Assembly: GCA_963693365.1 (NCBI GenBank) | Contig: CAVNZM010000051.1 | Coordinates: 1-26,620, forward strand | DNA length: 26,620 nt | Source of the DNA: Amoebidium appalachense | Taxonomy: Eukaryota > Protista > Ichthyosporea | Reading direction: 5' to 3' | Shown here: piece by piece, positions 1-12,468 of the stretch | How positions within the stretch are numbered: position 1 is the first letter of the stretch | Layout of the letters: the number at the start of each line of letters is the position of its first letter | Position numbers and translations under genes: made by a program | The notes under the pieces: generated by a model | What the model was told of the DNA's origin: nothing | The model's input: only the letters and a program-made list of their open reading frames with translations | Databases searched by the model: none

Positions 1-5
1 CTCAC

Positions 6-13
6 TATAAATA
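6..13 (+). promoter_or_regulatory. Possible TATA box
   Basis: TATAAATA about 310 bp upstream of the ATG at 324. Confidence 0.3.
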
Positions 14-323
14 CGCCGTGACTATACACTCTGTGCATGTTCCGAGTTCGCCGCGCGCAAGTCCACAGATTTCTCTTGCTGACATGTATCATTCGAGCCG
101 GTTCTTTACGCTGGCCACTCGGCCTTGTATTGAACCACCACTCGTATTGCACACGTACGTGCGCGTGTGTGTACATGCGGGTGTATTACTGAGACGTTAG
201 CTAGGGTAGTCAGGAACTGAGATTTAAGGCTAGGGTTTTTTTTTTGGTTTTTTTTTTTCAGTTTGTGTTGTTTTTTTGTGTTACGAAGTAGTGTACCGCC
301 TGTACAGTGTGTTCCCGGCAAAA

Positions 324-1491
324 ATGGCGCGAGGAAGGGGGGGCCAGATCAGAGGCCTTGCCTTCTTCTTTGTGGTTTCGTTCGTGCTGCTGGCGTCAAT
401 CCCCCCAAACGGAAGGCTGTAAGTGACACCATATAATCGTTAATATTTTGTGTGAGTCGTTTTTTTTGTTTGTTTTCTTCGTTTGTTTGTTTGCTTGTTG
501 ATATTTTAACGCGTTGTCAATATCTAAATAACGATCGATACGGTCGTAATCTTTGTATAGTATTATTGGCCATGAATTGGTTAGTTAAAACACTGCACCC
601 AGCCAACAATTTAATAGGTCTAGATATTAGGGCAAAGTCATCATTTTCGGCACATCAAATGACTACATATAATCCCCAACTGCATGCACACACGCAGGTT
701 GTGTCGTCCTCTTTATGACTCTTATGCGCTACCACAATGGTGACAACATATCTTACACTACAACATATCTAACAACATTTCCCCACAGTCTTCTTCCTCT
801 TCAAAAAGGCAGTCAGCCGCCACCACCGCCACCGCCACCACCCCCACCGCCACCCCCACCACCACCCCCTCCACCCCCTCCACCACCCCCACCACCCCCA
901 CCACCACCACCATGCCCGGAACTCCTTTATTGGGCAAATAACGCCGTGGGTTGCCAACCGGTTCCCCCTTGCAACCCTGGTTCGTATTTTTACGTTCAGA
1001 GAATGTCTTGCCAGCCGTGCCCTGCCCTGACATACAATGTGGATGGGAAGAAGTGTCTCCCTTGTGCGGAGGGGTTGGTTCCGAATAAGGACAGAACCAA
1101 CTGCGAGCCCTGCCCCATGGGTACCATTCGGGTAAGCATCCTGCGAACTATATATCATAAGTTATTTTATGTGTCACAGTGTAATTGTATACCCGATTAC
1201 ATGTTCATTATCTGCGAAGTGGTATGTTTGTCAACTATGTGGTCGAATTTTTATTGTATTTACGATTACCATTTTTTTTTTGAGTTTTTTCTTTTGGATG
1301 TTCAAAGAAGGTTTCAGTATCGAATTGGATTTTCATTTATTGCCATTTTAGCGGAATCATAACATGCTTCCGCTTTAAAATTGACTGACTTTTCGTTTAG
1401 TGTGATTTTTTCTTGTAGGATTTCTTGCCAAGCATGGTGCGAAAAATACCATAGCTAGTTTCCAAGGGGTTGTTCCCCCGTAGAAGCGGAC

Positions 1492-1547
<56 letters not shown>

Positions 1548-4500
1548 AAACAAACAAACAAACACACAGACCGGCAACACATGCAACCCGTGCCCCCCAG
1601 GCCAGTGGACCGGCGCCGGGCAGAAGAAATGCGAACCCTGTTCCCCTGGCACATATTCCGACCCCGCCAAGGGAGTCATGTGTGCCCCTTGCCCAATCAA
1701 CCAAGTCACAAATGGTCAAAGATGTGTTAACTGCACAGTAAATCAGCAACCTGACCCTGACACTAAAAAATGCGTTTCCTGTCCGGTGGGAATGAGCACA
1801 CCCGTCGCGGGTGAAATGTGCAAGGATTGCCCGCCTTGGCAGTACGCGGTTTCGGGTGGTGCGTGCACGAATTGCTCTGCGGGGCGGCAGCCGAAGCCTG
1901 GCCAATCAGGATGCGAGCCCTGTCCCCCTGGATCAGTCAATAACATTGCTGGAGGATTCTGTGGCCGATGCCCTCCCATGACTTATGCTGTCAGTGGTAT
2001 GTTGCTTGATACCTCCTCCCTGCCCCCCCCCCCCCCCCCCCCCCCGGGCCCCCTTCCATGATAAAAAACAAAAACAAAAAATAAAAGCAAACCGGTGATT
2101 CATATTTTTTAAATATTGAATGAATGACTAAAAATTAAACAGAAATGAAAGCTTAAATGGCGAAGCAAAATATAGCGTCTGAACATCGATGTAGCCACCT
2201 CAATGTTTTTCGTAGTTTGGAATCTGTACCTCACATCTATCAGCCAGTCTTCAAATCATGTGTCCAATTTACAATAATGATCGAAGCTCCGGAAAAGTGT
2301 TTGAATAGAAAACAAACAAATTTCTATTCAAACACACATCCAAAGACCCCAAAATCACGTGACTCAGACCCAATCCCCACGCAGGAATCCGCTGCGACCA
2401 AAACCCACTAATCCTGTGAGTCCCTAGCGGTAGCCAAACCAAGTGTGTTCCCTGCGAGGCCGGATTCACGTACGACCTAAAGATGAACGGTGATGAGTGT
2501 GTGCCCTGCCCCGTGGGCACATATTCTTTGGGTCAGGTGGGGGCCGGGTGCAGAAATTGCACGGCTGGACAGATGCCAAATAATTTGCAGACGGGATGTA
2601 TCCCGTGCACGGAAGGTAATTGTGTGAGTGTGGGTGTGTGTGGGTGTGGGTGTATTTGTGTGCGTGTGTGCATGATTTTTTGTGCATGTGCATGTACATG
2701 TGTACGTCATTTTTTTTTTTTTTTTTTTTTTTTTTTGCGTGTGTGTGTGTGTGAGTGTGTGTATAGGTGGGTGGGTGGGTGGGCCAGGCACAAACACACA
2801 CAATGTTACATGTACTAACACGGCTCCTCCGCCACCCACCCACCACCAATCCCACCTCCACCCCCCTCTCAAATTTAAAAATAAAATAAAAACACAGGAA
2901 CCTACTCCCCATACGGCAACCTGTGCATGCCGTACCCAAAGAGCACCTACTCAGGAACCTAGCCAAGTGTCTCAACTGCACCACCAACCAGCAGCCAAAT
3001 GCAAAGCAGACAGCGTGCGAGCCATGCATAAAGGGTAAGCAGCGACGCATACACACACACACACACACACACACACATGCACATGCCATATTCACCCCAC
3101 CCAACGCTCGCTACCTTATTACATACATACGCACCTGCTACCCCTATCCCCCTAACCCAAGTACCCACATACACACCCTCTCCCCGTCCCCCTCAACCCC
3201 TCCCCCCACCTCCCCCCCCCCCCCCTGTGAATGTACATTTTCTACTGAGTAGCACATTCCAGGCTGAGCCCCTAACCCCCACTTCTAGCACCTTCTAATT
3301 TGCACATTCTACCACCCCCCCCCCCCTTCATCTCCTCCCCCCTCCCTTCAGGACATGTCACACTCAGTAGCACATTCCAACCACCTCCCTCCCCCTCCTC
3401 CCATAGCAATTCTAACCCCCCCCCCTCCCCCCTCCCTCCCTCCCCCCCCCCCCTCCCCCCACCTCTCAGGATATGTAAGTGCACCGGGACAGATCTGCCA
3501 ACCGGGCAGTAACATCACCCCGGCACCGTGTATGATGACAAAGACAGAAACGGCCAATACACTGTCGGTGAGGGACTTGGCGGTGTTACTGTTCGCCTAG
3601 TCTCTGCAACCGGCGCAACAATCGCCACCACTACCACAAATATCAACGGGTTTTACGAGTTTAACTCTCTTCCTGCCGGAAATTACACCATTGTGGTGGA
3701 TAGTCCGTCTGGAAATTTGGCAATTAATCAGGATCCAGACCCCGAGGCACCATTGTGATTCTTGGCACCTCCGAGACTGTGGTTAGCGTGGATTTCCAGT
3801 ATATCTCCACACAAGGTAAATCCCCTCCCTCCCTCCCTCCCTCCCCGCCCCTCTCCTTCCACTTACCACCCCCCTATCACCCCTCTTACTCACCTTCCCA
3901 ACCCAGCCCCTTTTTTTTAAAAAAGTACAAAAGTACAAAAAAGTACAAACATTGATGATGCTCATTTGTTCCTCCCTCCCCCCTCCCCCCTCCCCCCTTC
4001 CCCCCACCACCCAACACACACATGCACACTGCAGAAAGGTTTCTGCTATCATACCTATCCATTGTTCTCGTAGCTGCTGATACTCTTCCAACCATAACAG
4101 TAGTCACAATATTAGTTATAATAACCATACTAACAGTAACAATATTAGTTACAGTATAGCTAATAATCCCCCTCCCCCTCCCCCCCCCCCCCAAACTCCC
4201 CCATCCCCCCTCCAGCCACCATCCGTGGCACCGTGTACGATGACAGCACCACCCCCAACGGCCGCCCATCCACCGGCGAAGGAATCCGCGGTGTCACCGT
4301 TCAGCTCACAGATGCAAACGGGCGTGTGCTTGCAAATACAGTCACAGACCGATTGGGTCAATTTTCGTTCTTGGTACCCCCCGGAACTTTCATCGTGAAG
4401 GTTGTCCCAAGCACCGTGCCTGCAAGGCTGTCGTTGAGATATGAGACGGATAACACCATCGATGGACAGATTACGGTATGTTCTAACCCCCCCCCCCCCC

Positions 4501-4691
4501 CTCCCTTCCGGCCTGCCCTCCTCTTCTTTCTGCCCCTTCCCCCCCCCCCCCCCCTTTCCCCGTCCCCTCCCCTAAGCCTACCTCTACACACACACAAGCA
4601 CACACCATCCTACGACCTCCCCTCCCCCCAAACCCAAAACACACCCACCCACTACATCGTTTCCTGCTGTGTTGCATTGTTCCCCCCCTTC

Positions 4692-4722
<31 letters not shown>

Positions 4723-7621
4723 ACGAGCATGCACGGACAAAGGGAATGTGCTAGGTAGACTGACCCCAGCGAACACCCACAGGTTACTGTCAAGCGCGGT
4801 GACGTCAAATGGGCCGATTTCGGTTACCTGCCCACCGATGCCCCCACCACCTCATACCAGCCCGAGCCCACCCCAACCCCCACCAACGCCGGCACCATCA
4901 AGGGCATTGTGTTTGACGATCTCAATCGCAACAAGATCGCCGATGGCGGCGAGGGAATTCCCAACGTCACCGTTACGATTTCCGACGCAAGCGGTAATGT
5001 TGTGGCGCGCGTGCGCACCGACGCAAGCGGCGCTTATTCCTTCGTCAACGTGCGTTTCGGCTCGTATGTTATCTCCGTTGATACCCCCACCGGCGGATAC
5101 CGCGCTTTTGTCGAACCTGACGTGGTTTTGGACGGCCGCACACGCACAAGCGTTAGCGTCACCAAGCCCGTTTCCGACAACGTCAACTACAGGTTCATTC
5201 GTAATGCTCCCCCACCAACCCCCACGCCTTCCCCTGTCCCCAACCCTACACCCGCCCCTACTCCTGCCCCGACCCCCGCTCCTACTCCGGCCCCCACACC
5301 TGCCCCTACTCCGGCCCCAACACCCGCTCCTACACCGGCTCCTACCCCTGCCCCTTCACCATACCCCGCCGGCCCCGGATCGATCACCGGAACCGTTTTC
5401 AACGATAAGGATGCCGATTACACGGTGACACCCGGCGAGGGTATTTCCGGCGTTGTTGTGACCCTTTATAACGACGCGACCAATAGGGTGATTGGTACTG
5501 TACGCACCGACGCTGCCGGCGTTTACCTTTTCCAGAAACTTCCAGTTGGTTCTTACCGCGTGGTGGTTTCCCCCCGGCGGGCCTTGTTGCTGAGGTTGAC
5601 CCGGATGATGTGTTGGATAGCAAGACGGTCACGGAGATTACGACCGATTTCCCTGACGTCACTGATCTCGATTTCGGATACATCGCCGGAAACCCCGCGC
5701 CATCTCCGGCCCCCACTCCCGCACCTACTCCTTACCCAACCCCCGCACCCACACCCGCCCCCACACCGGCGCCAACTCCCGCTCCTACACCTTCTCCTAC
5801 CCCTGCCCCCGGCCCGCTGGGATCAATCTCCGGGACCGTATTTGAGGATCAAAACGGCGACGGCAAGCCGAGCATGGATGGTAGCGAGGGTGTCCTGGGT
5901 GTCACTGTCACACTCACCCCCAACCTTCCCGGTGGCCGCATCCCGACGGTTCAAACGACACGCAGCGGCACATATTCCTTCCCCAACCTCCCACCTGGCA
6001 CGTACACCGTCACGGTGGTGGCCACAACGCTACCCGCGGGCCTGACCCAAACCGTTGACCCTGACCCGACCCGTTACAGCACCACCACCGTCACGCTTAC
6101 GTCGGCTCAGCCCCTCATGCACAATGATCGATTTTGGCTACCAACGTCCCCCTGCACCTACCCCACCCCCCGCTCCCACCCCGGCCCCTACTCCCGCGAC
6201 CAAACCCGCCCCTATGGGTCAGGGTAGCATTAGCGGAACCATTTTTGAAGACAAGGACGGAGATGAGCCCACCCCCGCCCCTATGGGTCAGGGGTAGCAT
6301 TAGCGGAACCATTTTTGAAGACAAGGACGGAGATGAGCTCCCAGCGGAGGGTGGATCGGAGGGTATCAAGGGCCTTACGGTGGGTCTTTTCACCCCCATC
6401 AGCGGCGCTACACCAATTAAAACCACCGTCACGGACAACAATGGTTTCTATTCGTTCGACAAGTTGCCCTTTGGCCAATACGGCGTGCAGATACTTCAGA
6501 GTTCGGTCCCCGCCGGCCTGACGCTCACAATCGACCCAGATGAAACGGTCGACGCTCAGACCACCGTCACTCTGACCGCCGCCGATCCGTCGATGGATAT
6601 GCTCGATTTCGGATATGTTCGAAATGGATACCCACCCGCTCCTACACCCGTACCTGTCCCCAACCCTACCCCTGCCCCAACCCCGGCACCTACTCCCGCT
6701 CCTACGCCTGCCCCTACCCCCGGCCCCGACGCCCGCCCCTACCCCGGCGCCTATGGGCAACGGAAAGCTGAGCGGCACTGTGTTTGAAGATAAGGACGGG
6801 GATGAAGCGCCCAGTGACAGCGGCTCGGAGGTTATTCCAAGCGTGACCGTCGGCCTGTTTTCGACCGCCAGCCCCGCCGCCCCTATCCGCACCATCACCA
6901 CCAACGCCAAGGGAGAGTACATGTTCGACAACCTCCCCCTAGGAACAAACTCGGTCCGGGTTCTCTGGCCGAGCGTGCCTACGGGTCTTGCCCTGCTCGC
7001 TGCGCCGATCCCGGTAAAGCCACCGACGGGAAGACATCGGTCACGCCCCACCCACGGACGATAACGAAATTACTATGCTCGATTTCGGTTACATCCGTAA
7101 CGGATACCCACCCGCTCCTACGCCTAGCCCTACCCCCCTGCCCCTACTCCGGCACCCACCCCGGCGCCGACTCCCGCTCCCACCCCGGCCCCGACGCCCG
7201 ACCCCGGAGTCTGTCCCAACAAGTGTAGTGCTTAAAGGGGTATGTTTTCCCGCGACTACAACGGCGACCTTCTCTTTAACCCGGGCGAGGGTCTTAAAGG
7301 AGTCGTGTGGTGAACGTTAAGAACGCCATGGGTAAGACCGTCGCTCCGGCAACGACGGACTCTGACGGTCTTTATTACGATTTGACGCTTCCCCCCGGCA
7401 CATATACTGTTGTTGTTGACCCTCCAACCGTCCCCAAGAAGGTGGTGGCGGTGGTCGATAATGACAGCGTGCCCAATGGGAGCACGACCAGTACCATTAA
7501 GACCCCCACCGATGAAATTGAAGAAAGAGAATTTCGGATCCGACCAGGGGTGGTGTGCCGAGGCACGTTAAAGATTTTATCTTGTTGCTTTCTACATGGG
7601 GACACCCCCACAAGGAGGTGA
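324..7621 (+). CDS. Multi-exon secreted/cell-surface protein: signal peptide, polyproline, Cys-rich GCC2/GCC3 (ephrin-receptor-like) repeats, ~8 SdrD-B-like domains with Pro-Thr/Ala linkers
   Basis: ATG 324 gives [25 protein letters not shown] (signal peptide). Approximate exons are 324-418, 809-1131, 1570-1996, 2385-2615, 2898-3034, 3470-3815, 4216-4475 and 4783-~7600, with GTAAG/GTATG donors, mostly CAG acceptors and ACTAAC branch points. CxPCPxGTY repeats are followed by GTVFxDxxxDG...GEGxxGVTVxL...TDxxGxYxFxxLPxGxYxV...DFGY repeats. There are several +/-1 frameshifts and the 3' end is uncertain. Confidence 0.8.
817..912 (+). repeat. Coding polyproline (CCN)n tract
   Basis: About 32 consecutive Pro codons in exon 2. 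Confidence 0.9.
5205..7205 (+). repeat. Interspersed (PTPA)n linker repeats between SdrD-B-like domains
   Basis: PTPAPTPA arrays near 5210-5370, 5695-5815, 6150-6210, 6630-6750 and 7105-7205. Confidence 0.85.
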
Positions 7622-7951
7622 AAATTTGGAAATTTCAGGCACTCTTTAGTTCGTTACGCTTTACGATGTGGGCACCTCTCCGCAGGGAGGCAAAAATTGG
7701 GGAAATTTTGTTAGATTATAACAATAGTCGTGACAGATTATCAGTAACCATGTTTGTTTGTATAACCTTACATGTGGAGCATCTTTGTATAGCATTTAGT
7801 GCAGCATCATCATCTTTGTATAGCATTTAGTGCAACAACATCAGGGTAAACGTATGTGACTAAACACCGTGTGTGTATGCCGCCGCAGCTTGTCTTTAGC
7901 CTAACCCTGCCAAATCATTAAAATTATATTTAGCTACAACTAAAATGTTTG

Positions 7952-7952
<1 letters not shown>

Positions 7953-7982
<30 letters not shown>

Positions 7983-8399
7983 ACCCACCCACTACCACCA
8001 CCACCACCATCACCTGGTCCACCACGCACACACACACTACCACCACCACCCCAGTCCCCGCCCGCCCACCAACCCGCTCGTGTCCAAATTGAACATGTAC
8101 ACACACCCTATAACCACCGCACAAACCTCTCCTATACTCTGCCCTCCCCCGCCATTGTAGGGGCAAAATGGCCCGGGAGGGCTTTCGTTTTGTGGCAGGG
8201 ACTCTGCATAAAGAGGAGAGGACGTGTGTGTGGGAGGATGACCAGTGGTGGCGGTGGTTCAGCTGAGAGTGGCGAGTCACCAGAAAAAGGTGTGGTGTCG
8301 ATTGCAGGGTCACCGTGGGGATGGGGGCCGCGGGGAAAAGGGGGGGGGGGGGGGGGGGGGGGCTTGGTTCTTATGTCTTGTTTTGTGTGTGTGTGCACG

Positions 8400-8438
<39 letters not shown>

Positions 8439-8780
8439 TGTGTGTGTGTGTGTGTGTGCGCGCGCGTTTGTGCGTGCGTGTACACGTGTGTAACAGCTTT
8501 GCGTTTGTGTGTAAGTGTGTGTGTGTGTTTGTGTGCACAGGTGTGTGCGTGTGTGGTTGTGCGCGTGTCACAGTGTACGTGTGAGTGTGTGTTTGTGTGT
8601 GTGTGTGCGCGCGTGCGTGTTTGTGTGTTTGTGTGTATGGGTGTGTGCGTAAGTGTGAGCGTGTGTGTGTGCGTGTGCGCGCACGCGCGGGCAGGGCCCC
8701 CACGCACGGTGTGTGTCACCGCGCACGTGGTTTGCAAAGGGGAGAGAGGGGAGGGGGGAGGGAGCTGGGGAGAGGGGGGA
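7953..8780. repeat. Low-complexity region: poly-C, (CAC)n, poly-G and degenerate (TG)n microsatellite
   Basis: Directly visible. The ORFs here are microsatellite translations. Confidence 0.9.
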
Positions 8781-9068
8781 AGCAATATACCAGGCTTACA
8801 AAATGAGACCCGTCTACCCGTGCAATCGCCCTTAAAATATCCGTACAATTGTGTCTGCCTCGATCGGGATTGATCACATAGATTATTGATCGCAGCCAAC
8901 CACGATCAAGGCACAGTTGTGCGGGGATGAGCTTTGATTGGATTATGCTGACCACATGCGACTTCAAGTTGATGCAAGCAGCATAAAAGAACGATTAGTT
9001 TCTGGGGGTAGACACCTTAATTCACATCGCAAGCCCCTCTCTACTCTTACACTAAGGGCATAAGTAGA

Positions 9069-9111
9069 GCCCAGTCTAGTTATTTCATCTCGCCCCCTCC
9101 TCCCTTCTTCT
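9069..9111 (+). repeat. Left terminal inverted repeat (43 bp)
   Basis: gcccagtctagttatttcatctcgccccctcctcccttcttct is the exact reverse complement of 12426-12468. Confidence 0.97.
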
Positions 9112-9377
9112 TTACTAAGCTTCCGTCACTATATAAGATCAAAATACAAATCCTAAATACAGAAAATGTCAAATTTCGGAAAATCGTCAATTTTGGAATT
9201 TTAGTGTATCATATTTTGGAATTTATAAAAATCTTAAATTGTAGTTAAACAGATTTATAAGGTAAAATAAGGAGGTTAGTACTATGTTAATAGTATTCTA
9301 GGAGTATAATCAAATGATTCAATATGATAATAAGAGTATAATTGAATAATACTATTCAATAGTAGGAAAGAGAAAAG

Positions 9378-9794
9378 ATGTATAACATAATTCATGTAAT
9401 GGAAAATGTAACAAATATAGCATTAGTAGGTATAGTAGTTTTAATAGTAATGTTTAGCAAGAATGGACAAAGTAGAAGTAATCAGATAAATATAAATACA
9501 ATAGTGACAATAGGAGTAGGTCTAATCGCGTGATTAGAAAGCGATAAATGAGGAAGAGTAATAGGATTAACAGGAGAATATGGACAGTTAATCGTGGAAT
9601 ATGGAATAGTAGCTACATTAATATCGGTAGTTGCTATATTAATGATGGATAGAGAGAAAGAGAAAAAGGGAATGGAACGAGTAGGGTTAATTATTTTAGC
9701 AACTTTAGGAATGATTATCTTAGTTGGTGCTCAAGATTTATTAACTGTTTACTTAGCAATGGAAGCTCAAAGTTTAGCTTTCTATACCTTAATT
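9378..9794 (+). pseudogene. nad2: Mitochondrial NADH dehydrogenase subunit 2, 5' portion only (translation table 4)
   Basis: The frame is open from ATG 9378/9399 if two in-frame TGA codons read Trp. It is hydrophobic and ends in LGMIILVGAQDLLTVYLAMEAQSLAFYTL, matching the Nad2 'DL...YL..E.QSL..Y.L' motif. The downstream EAxxKYF motif was not found. Confidence 0.8.
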
Positions 9795-10400
9795 TGAAAC
9801 AGCTCACAGAGGTAACCTGGATAATCTGTCATTATTCAAACTTGGGTTTAGATTCTTATTCAATTGATGGTTCACTCTTATCGTTGTAATATTATTATTG
9901 TAATTTTATTCTTATTCTTAGCTCTCCGAATTGAGAGCTGTCTTTACTAACTCGTTTAGTAAGAGATGTTACAGGTAATCGAAAGAATACCAGTACTAAG
10001 CACTATAGCTGAAATAGTACGAAACCCCTCTGATAAAACAGGGGAGACATTCATTCACATCTAGAGTAACATATAAAGAGAATAACTGAAAGTTAATAGT
10101 TTCACTTGGTGTAAAAGATACTAACTAGTATGTTTTTTAACTTTATAGAAAGAATATTTAAGAACTTTATAAAAGGAAGATGATAGATATTTCTTATTTA
10201 ACCTAGTCGACTCAGATCACTCAGGTTACAGGGACGCTGATTGCAACGGGGGATCAGTGCTTTATCGGAACTTTGCGTATATAGGAATTATCCATGCCTT
10301 GTTTAACTGATTGAATTTAATTAGTTAATTCTATAAAGGGAGGATCTATTTTTCTATAGTCTTGGTACTATCCTTTCGAAGGTTATTCCTTTTTAGATGA
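9795..10400 (+). other. Structured non-coding region, possibly (part of) an organellar self-splicing intron
   Basis: Begins where nad2 similarity stops. Local hairpins include agctctc/gagagct, ggta..gaaa..tacc and cccct..agggg, plus long-range gtaacctg (~9812) with caggttac (~10222). No canonical group I or II core could be assigned. Confidence 0.35.
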
Positions 10401-10989
10401 GCCACTTAGAGAAAAATCTACGTCCCCCCTCCCTTTGCTTCAGCGATCCGGGACCCATAATTTTCAGGTTTTTCAAGTTTTCTCTACCTAAAACTAATAG
10501 AAATTTGAAAAGATTTTGAAAATGGGTTGGTTGGTGATGACTAGAGCAACTGGATGAAGACAAGTTGAGAAAGCATTTGAGCACCTTTTCTTAGATTGAG
10601 TGGTAAAAGATAAATGGGGGGAAGCATTAGAGTACTTCTTCTTGAATAGGTCATAAGAGGGATTGCGGCAGTAGAGAGATGAAGAATGCTAACAGTAGAT
10701 AGGGAGAAAGAGTGAAAGCAGCAGAGAGATAAAGAATTACAGAAGAGTAGTTTATTGATGAAGAATAACGGAGTAACAGAGGAGTAACAGAGGAGTAATT
10801 TATTGATGAGGAACAAAGGAGGAGTAATGGTTTTATTTGTGGAAATTATTGACATAAATATTTTTCTGGGTAAACACGTAGGATGGGTGTCCGATATCAA
10901 CAGACTTCGTTTCATGTTTTAGCAGTTCGCGTTCGGCTGCCTGCATACGGGCACTTGTTAGAAGAAAAAAAGATAGAAATTCTAGCTTA

Positions 10990-11930
10990 TCACAAATAGA
11001 ATTTCGTAAATTGTATTTTTAGTAAATGGTTGAAAATGCTCACAAAAATTAAAAGGTTTAGCTCGAATACCTAATACCCCAGAAGCTAGCTGACGAGGAA
11101 AGTCTCCTACCATCTAGCACGGATTAACCATTGAAATTCCTCACTAACTAAAGATACCAAGGTAGATATAATTTATAGGAAAGATACTAAATTTCACTGG
11201 AAAATAAGGTGCATGTAACCACTTTTGTAATTCATAAATAACTGAAAATACTCACTATCATGAAATGGTGCACCTCGAATATCTGGCTCCCCCCGGAAGC
11301 TAACTGACGAGGAGAGTCTCCTACCATCTAACACGGGCTAAGTATTGAAATTACTCACTAATGGAGGTAAAGAAAAGGAATAAGCTTGCTATGGAAGACA
11401 CTAAATTTAACTAGAAAATAAGATGCTTGTCACAAATAGAATTTATAAGTTTTATTTTTGTAAATAGCTGTAATTGTTCTCTATGTAGAAAGGGTTTAGC
11501 TAGAATAGCTAACTCCCCCCGGAACAGGTTTAGCCATGAGGGTCTCCTACGATTTAGTTAGAGTTTAGTGTTGAAATTACTCACTAATAAAGTTTAAAAG
11601 CTTTAAGAAATGACTAGGAAAGACACTCATTATTACTTGAAAACAAGGTGCATGTAACCACTTTGGTATTTCGTAAATAGCTGAAAATGCTCACTGTCAT
11701 TTAAAGGTTTAGCTCGAATACCTAGCTCCCCCTCGGAACAATTCTAACCAGGAGAGTATCCTATCATTTAGTTCGAGCTTACTGTTAAAATTCTTCACTA
11801 ATGTAGATTAGAAATCTTAAGAAAATGGCTATGAAAGACACTCATTTTTGCTTAAAAAGAAGGTGCATGTAACCACTTTTGTATTTCGTAAATGGCTGAA
11901 AAATAGTCACTGTCAATTTGAGGTTTACCT
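10990..11930 (+). repeat. Imperfect tandem array, ~4.5 units of ~210-225 bp
   Basis: The anchor gtaaat(g/a)gctgaaaatgctcac recurs near 11022, 11234, 11460, 11673 and 11888. ggtttagctcgaatacct, gtctcctac, ttgaaattactcactaa and aaggtgcatgtaaccactt also recur. Confidence 0.9.
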
Positions 11931-12155
11931 ATAATACCTAGTCCCCCCCGAAATACCTAGCTCCCCCCGAAGGCTCATTTTCAAAATAATACCTAGTCCC
12001 CCCGAAATACCTAGTACCCCCCGAAGAATCGAAGATTTAGCTGAAATTTCATATGATCAATAATACCTAGTGCCCCCCGAAATACCTAGTACCCCCCGAA
12101 AACCAGTTTAGCTATAATACCTAGTGCCCCCCGAAATACCTAGTACCCCCCGAAG
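11931..12155 (+). repeat. Array of ~19-bp aatacctagN(c)nga repeats, arranged as pairs
   Basis: About 8 copies, e.g. aatacctagtgccccccga then aatacctagtaccccccga. Confidence 0.9.
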
Positions 12156-12164
12156 ACCAATTTC

Positions 12165-12412
12165 TAAAATCTCCACCCTATCCATCCTAGTCCAACATGC
12201 TTAGACTAAGGTTGTGAGTGCTAGATGGACCTGTAACCGCTTCATTGAGCTCTTCGCTTGCGCTAGCTACGAGCTCTGGTGAAGCTCTGCCCTACTATCC
12301 CAGAATCTCCAACCTACCTATCTAGTACCCTCCCTATTAAGATTTCTCCCCTCCCTACATCCAAAAATCTCCACCCTACACCTCCTACATCTAAAATCTC
12401 CACTACCTACTT
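12165..12412 (+). repeat. Subterminal aatctcca(c)cctac repeats
   Basis: Copies near 12168, 12304, 12366 and 12394, just inside the right TIR. Confidence 0.7.
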
Positions 12413-12425
12413 ACATGCCTAGAAT

Positions 12426-12468
12426 AGAAGAAGGGAGGAGGGGGCGAGATGAAATAACTAGACTGGGC
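12426..12468 (-). repeat. Right terminal inverted repeat (43 bp)
   Basis: agaagaagggaggagggggcgagatgaaataactagactgggc. Confidence 0.97.

Follow-up and report, generated by a model that had tools for sequence, protein, structure and literature searches.

We examined a 3,400-bp element at positions 9069-12468 of a contig from the ichthyosporean Amoebidium appalachense (GenBank assembly GCA_963693365.1, contig CAVNZM010000051.1, positions 1 to 26,620 of the forward strand); these 26,620 nucleotides were analysed as a whole and are called the window. The reading that we favour, with slightly better than even confidence, is that the element is a passive nuclear copy of mitochondrial DNA (mtDNA), or NUMT, derived from a small linear chromosome with a truncated nad2 gene, and that it is flanked by an older mitochondrial remnant on its left and a virus-like insert on its right, with a left junction that is either allele-specific or an artefact. 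The element is mitochondrial in its make-up, its nad2 is cut short, its ends are trimmed with no target-site duplication, its middle has a depth near that of the flank, and an intact nad2 is located elsewhere. From this we infer a nuclear location, attachment by end-joining, the capture of one molecule and not of pieces, and an Amoebidium-like host.

The element is bounded by an exact inverted repeat of 43 bp, with a left terminal core at 9069-9111 (plus strand) and a right terminal core at 12426-12468 (minus strand), and this pair is the sole exact inverted repeat of at least 20 bp in the whole 26.6-kb window that is not of low complexity. The guanine-cytosine content across the element is 0.358, against 0.542 at 1-8759 and 0.556 at 13117-26620. 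Immediately inward of the 43-bp repeat the two ends differ. The left core is followed by upstream subterminal sequence and the nad2 leader (9112-9377, plus), a 5' fragment of nad2 in genetic code 4 (9378-9791, plus), a non-coding middle (9792-11009) with unique pieces at 9910-10057 and 10455-10855, an array of diverged repeats of ~215 bp that is common to high-depth contigs (11010-11952, plus), tiers of 18/19-bp and 54-bp units (11933-12163, plus) and downstream subterminal sequence (12164-12425, plus). Five 63-nt repeat cores recur in the array at a spacing of 212-226 bp (11018-11947), and the tiers stand in order, with the 215-bp unit first and the 18/19-bp and 54-bp units after it up to 12163. 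The tRNA scan returned no match.

Perfect inverted termini and a high-copy repeat would also suit a nuclear transposon with terminal inverted repeats, or a miniature inverted-repeat transposable element, that had captured a fragment of nad2. This explanation is largely refuted and retains a negligible probability, since no exact direct repeat flanks the two junctions, where a target-site duplication was looked for, the longest code-4 frame within the element is 153 aa and hence not of transposase size, and the contigs that carry the repeat stop 11-15 bases past it instead of running into varied flanks. The first-pass annotation of this DNA had described the perfect 43-bp termini, the AT-rich body, the tiered downstream repeats and the absence of both a target-site duplication and a transposase, and it was accurate on all of these.

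The coding content of the element is the beginning of nad2. Models of NuoN/nad2 match residues 12-143 of the code-4 frame at 9366-9812 (best E 1.3e-11), NuoN/Nad2 chains of the PDB match the frame at E 1.4e-6 to 7.7e-6, and two in-frame TGA codons lie within the NuoN-matching stretch; Pfam gave no relevant match for this frame. The fragment comprises 138 codons (414 bp) from the ATG at 9378, and past 9791 the frame adds seven unrelated codons before a TAA at 9813-9815. When the window was searched by tblastn with a 479-aa NuoN, one of 14 rows was significant and its match stops at 9791; the six-frame translation of the window holds no other nad2 piece, and a query with the fragment found only one weak longer relative among 2892 candidates. 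The code-4 nad2 of the first-pass annotation is therefore borne out by its protein matches and in-frame TGA codons, and reduced to the first 138 codons of the gene. The copy in the element would be non-functional, because nuclear translation halts at its UGA codons for tryptophan and two thirds of nad2 are absent.

To place the element among other copies, we compared the window with assembled contigs from five of 24 runs (X1, X4, X5, X7 and X16, with X2, X3, X6, X8-X15 and X17-X24 left out). X1, X4 and X5 are three runs from two samples, X16 is taken to be RNA as a guess only, so that its gaps in cover over parts of the middle were given no weight, and X7, which is strongly skewed towards C>T/G>A and leaves the left flank without cover, was kept out of arguments on junctions and depth. 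Depth here means contig depth, which is no measure of copy number, and assembled contigs drop rare variants.

These contigs locate an intact nad2 outside the window. A 1,231-nt contig of X16 matches 9664-9791 without a difference and then continues for 1,103 letters that have no match in the window; the first 30 of these, translated by hand, read AGYKRNEQYS in frame with nad2, which fits the region of NuoN that follows a shared ELQSL/EAQSL motif. A DNA-type contig of X1 (depth 6634) likewise departs from the window at 9791, with 40 more letters. Another X1 contig, of depth 19874, spans the 9791 break as the window does (9704-9867, with ten other letters and two gaps), so that molecules with a truncated nad2 are apparently present at high depth; X4 lacks this variant. 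Over 9141-9391, in the subterminal sequence and nad2 leader, the element does not differ from an X1 contig whose depth is 3689. Over 9400-9660 the summed depth of X16 far exceeds that of the nad2 contigs next to it, and position 9636 has a variant letter that predominates in X1 and X4. It seems that several chromosomes carry copies of pieces from the nad2 5' region.

The X16 contig departs exactly where homology ends and has an in-frame continuation absent from the window, as might be expected of a working chromosome that carries nad2 exon 1 and is joined in trans, through a split group I or group II intron, to an exon 2 elsewhere; the mtDNA of Amoebidium is indeed intron-rich (PMC7027106). 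We consider trans-splicing very improbable, as the DNA-type X1 contig departs at 9791 too, an indication that nad2 is contiguous in DNA, and there is hardly any cover of the middle at mitochondrial depth. Rfam likewise gave no match in the element at E up to 5, a search that divergent group I halves can escape.

The terminal repeat itself is an end that many molecules have in common. The contigs of its 31-mers lie at a depth of 5000 in X4 and 9000 in X5, where the left flank has 19.4 and 32.8, and it is this depth of ~260-270 times the flank, together with the several different continuations that the contigs show inward of the repeat for both end types, that identifies it as such. A 28-nt core of the repeat occurs in no stretch of the metagenome contigs or of the viral contigs. 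In one X5 contig, which has a depth of 53, a portion of the terminal repeat (9080-9111) stands after 67 other letters, which resemble the decayed motif of the left flank, as another embedded or variant end would.

The mitochondrial chromosomes of Amoebidium parasiticum were reportedly first described by Burger et al. in 2003, and the earlier reader attributed terminal repeat arrays to Amoebidium mitochondrial chromosomes, a feature that the sources cited here did not show. Amoebidium mtDNA is divided among several hundred linear chromosomes that bear terminal repeats and, further inward, distinct 5' and 3' sequences (PMC2518934, PMC7027106), and the chromosomes of A. parasiticum use UGA for tryptophan, are mostly non-coding and have a repeat common to very many molecules (PMC2518934, PMC7027106, PMC7194472). 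The element resembles them in its inverted terminal repeat, distinct inner ends, UGA codons for tryptophan and mostly non-coding sequence; unlike them it is embedded, with trimmed tips, a nad2 that is cut off and a middle of near-nuclear depth. This likeness is one of architecture. With a repeat shared by many molecules, distinct and identically oriented inner ends and a nad2 read in code 4, the Amoebidium-type mitochondrial architecture proposed earlier is upheld.

The depth of the unique middle favours a nuclear copy. In X1 the middle has a depth of 227-264, compared with 114 for the flank, 3689 for the nad2 leader and 6517 for another mitochondrial-type variant; in X4 it has 21-23, compared with 19.4 for the flank and 35.5 for the leader. 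The middle thus lies at ~1-2.3 times the flank depth and the neighbouring mitochondrial pieces of X1 at 30-57 times. The ratio of X1 to X4 depth is 5-6 for the flank and the right repeat, 11 for the middle and 103-184 for mitochondrial-type pieces. Along the element, depth falls sharply after 9791 and high-depth exact matches resume near 10860. The element combines a mitochondrial origin, a unique part near flank depth and junctions of the end-joining type, and in these respects it works like an ordinary NUMT.

The sharp depth changes after 9791 and near 10860, and the mitochondrial remnant already present in the left flank (described below), could also reflect a composite NUMT assembled from two or three chromosomes (a nad2 start, a low-copy middle and a shared repeat end) that never existed as a free molecule. 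That the order of the parts matches a single chromosome, and that a high-depth X1 contig crosses 9791 as the window does, albeit in a variant absent from X4, makes this a rather remote alternative.

A number of observations weigh against a nuclear copy embedded as the window draws it, and most concern the left junction. In each of X1, X4 and X5, a single contig spans 8940-9067 and then continues with 43-58 other letters, which are alike in the three runs, and the depth over 9036-9065 equals the depth of that single departing contig. The junction as drawn occurs in none of the 56, 9 and 11 contigs compared here from X1, X4 and X5, respectively, so that the sequence across the left junction that the first-pass annotation had named as a test was not found in contigs, from which rare variants drop out, and its placement of the element within nuclear-type sequence is not confirmed on this side. 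The host exon to the left (4780-7550, 2.8 kb) needs at least five and, judged by motif, about nine or more switches of frame, at least four of them at C/G runs, and these frameshifts are the signature of a thin, poor long-read consensus or of a decaying gene, which makes a false left join more probable. On the other side of the element 13 virus-like frames are open across 11 kb, although they were picked for openness and the contrast with the host exon is therefore inflated. Of 4957 pieces and 490 loose ends, the 32 pieces and 24 loose ends listed include none that bridges the right junction. With respect to depth, X4 does not discriminate, its mitochondrial-type pieces having just 1.8 times the flank depth, and the X1/X4 ratio of the middle is double that of the flank. 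Within 9910-10057 the low-depth contigs differ from the window by 3-4 substitutions and three gaps, and they leave out 97 bp at 10195-10293; they may represent another, sister copy.

Much of this would be accommodated if the element were a rare free linear mitochondrial chromosome whose placement in the contig is an artefact of a chimeric long read or a gap-free join. The left junction is missing from three of three runs, the segment left of the element is rich in errors, free ends readily ligate during library preparation, and the three pieces adjoin one another at natural ends or close to them, a few bases being lost from each; there are also no differences from high-depth contigs over 9141-9391, 9656-9791 and 11713-11846. 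Such an artefact would require two separate false joins in a window that contains no N, and the middle is difficult to reconcile with it, lying in X1 14-29 times under the neighbouring mitochondrial-type pieces and rising from X4 to X1 by 11-fold as compared with 103-184-fold. A free molecule of organellar depth, complete to its tips, is thus not what we see, given the near-flank middle in X1 and the trimmed tips, and we consider a misplaced free chromosome unlikely, if still the most serious competitor of the nuclear copy. We are somewhat doubtful that the left junction is real in the form drawn; either it occurs only in the sequenced strain or haplotype, or the long-read consensus is wrong there. 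Foreign insertions that are polymorphic occur commonly in Amoebidium (PMC11244446).

The left flank differs from the contigs at four places in 368 bp, and its last part has a mitochondrial character of its own. Positions 9017-9067 (plus) align to the downstream end of the element with a score of 36, which none of 1000 shuffles reaches, and this decayed downstream end, which runs into other sequence in X1, X4 and X5, is likely, judging from the alignment, to be an older NUMT at the same site. An X1 joint between 8762 and 12588 was considered as an empty-site allele and rejected, its one side consisting of 24 letters beside G runs.

The trimming of the ends is seen by comparison with the high-depth contigs, which extend 11-15 self-complementary bases beyond the 43-bp repeat. 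One outer motif is present in all seven contigs for which a loose end before 9069 is listed (four in X1, two in X4, one in X5), and contigs that bear it reach a depth of 3828. It comprises up to 15 letters, GAACTAGTTCGAGGG in X1 and GATCTAGTTCGAGGG in X4, which differ by one letter; its first ten letters are self-complementary at ten of ten positions in X1 and eight of ten in X4, and the contigs end 5 bases beyond its axis of symmetry. In the window the motif is absent on the left and matches at eight of nine bases on the right, where it forms a remnant of the outer chromosome tip (12469-12477, minus), and relative to the contigs the tips of the element are short by 15 nt on the left and 6 nt on the right. 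The chromosome can therefore no longer be called complete, as it was at first, and of the end-to-end NUMT then proposed, the nuclear copy is favoured by the depth of the middle and the end-to-end extent is contradicted by the trimmed ends. An 11-nt form of the outer motif matched the window six times where 5.8 matches were expected, which is no signal, and the window's own termini fold no better than shuffles.

The outer tip fits an opened hairpin or fold-back end, a possible structure that we propose from base complementarity; contigs cannot show the end of a molecule, and a library artefact is also possible. Linear yeast mtDNAs end in hairpins (t-hairpins; PMC3105423), and the element is like them in that the terminal inverted repeats finish in self-complementary sequence; unlike the yeast case, the contigs here pass the axis by just 5 bases, and closed ends are putative. 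A literature search found no report of hairpin mitochondrial telomeres in Amoebidium. As a speculation with a small chance of being correct in full, the hundreds of mitochondrial chromosomes in this lineage might end in a 15-nt fold-back tip that primes or caps end replication, and a single nuclear repair event might have taken in one of them almost entire, joined by its tip to the end of a viral genome. Judged by eye, the 19-bp internal unit (11933-12163) resembles the chromosome tip at 12455-12477 in having CTAG, a C-run and GAA, which suggests a common origin of the two.

At the right junction, base 12477 is common to the tip remnant and to the repeat that follows, so that each partner has lost a few bases and one base belongs to both. 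This multi-copy repeat runs from 12477 to ~13116-13300 at ~42-48 times the flank depth (X1, X4), lacks at least eight letters that an X4 contig carries before 12477, and is probably the end, possibly a terminal repeat, of a virus-like element. It leads into an intron-poor, virus-like gene block (13117-26620) that encodes a DUF5906 primase-helicase, an RGS protein, a polysaccharide lyase 14, an ATP-dependent ligase and several orphans. Pfam matched five of 13 frames of the block and PHROGs three of eight; the 689-aa frame is nearest to viral clusters, a match that is weak by the Atlas's own recognition value, and the 341-aa frame had no Atlas match. The primase had no relative in viral contigs, and its search returned three proteins among 996 candidates. 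Endogenous viral elements of Amoebidium include giant-virus inserts and adintoviruses (PMC11244446), and the block is like them in that an intron-poor stretch with a primase and virus-like genes lies beside intron-rich host genes; unlike them, no capsid or polymerase marker was identified among its genes within the window, and the viral family is not assigned. An apparent spliceosomal intron (13822-14019, minus strand) splits the DUF5906 gene into two frames, which hints that the host processes a viral gene.

If the element is a nuclear copy, its history can be pictured as follows. A linear chromosome with a truncated nad2 would arise by recombination between chromosomes with shared ends and would escape to the nucleus, where its free ends would be joined at a break during repair with the loss of a few bases per tip; the partner on the right would be the end of the virus-like element, trimmed in a similar way, and the resulting copy would have no function. 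In multipartite linear mtDNA (Alatina, PMC3268669; survey, PMC3673629), gene fragments adjoin the termini through subterminal recombination, and an Alatina-like spread of 5' gene fragments, nad2 included, would explain the truncated nad2; unlike in Alatina, the fragment here is 414 bp plus a leader and is followed by non-coding DNA. Near whole-chromosome copies in a nuclear assembly are known from Hydra magnipapillata, whose NUMTs of linear mtDNA cover up to 7,684 of 8,194 bp and 7,421 of 7,686 bp (PMC3716686). Hydra has two gene-rich chromosomes, whereas the donor here would be one of very many small ones, with both termini nearly kept. A literature search, with most subscription papers outside its reach, found no report of ichthyosporean NUMTs.

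The weight of the finding lies mainly in the self-complementary tip and the junction between mitochondrial and virus-like DNA. The tip is a better lead than the NUMT and provides a handle on how ends are copied among hundreds of linear chromosomes, and chromosomes with truncated genes show how such a genome proliferates. If the joins are real, a close relative of animals takes up free-ended organellar chromosomes almost entire at those breaks that also receive viral genomes. Nuclear assemblies can, through biology or artefact, come to include small linear mitochondrial chromosomes, which is a warning in itself.

The remainder of the left side is occupied by an intron-rich host gene (300-7550, plus, boundaries approximate) with many single-base frameshifts. 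Its product is of a surface type, with cysteine-rich repeats, several SdrD-B domains and Pro-Thr/Ala linkers, and a short duplication lies near 6210-6335.

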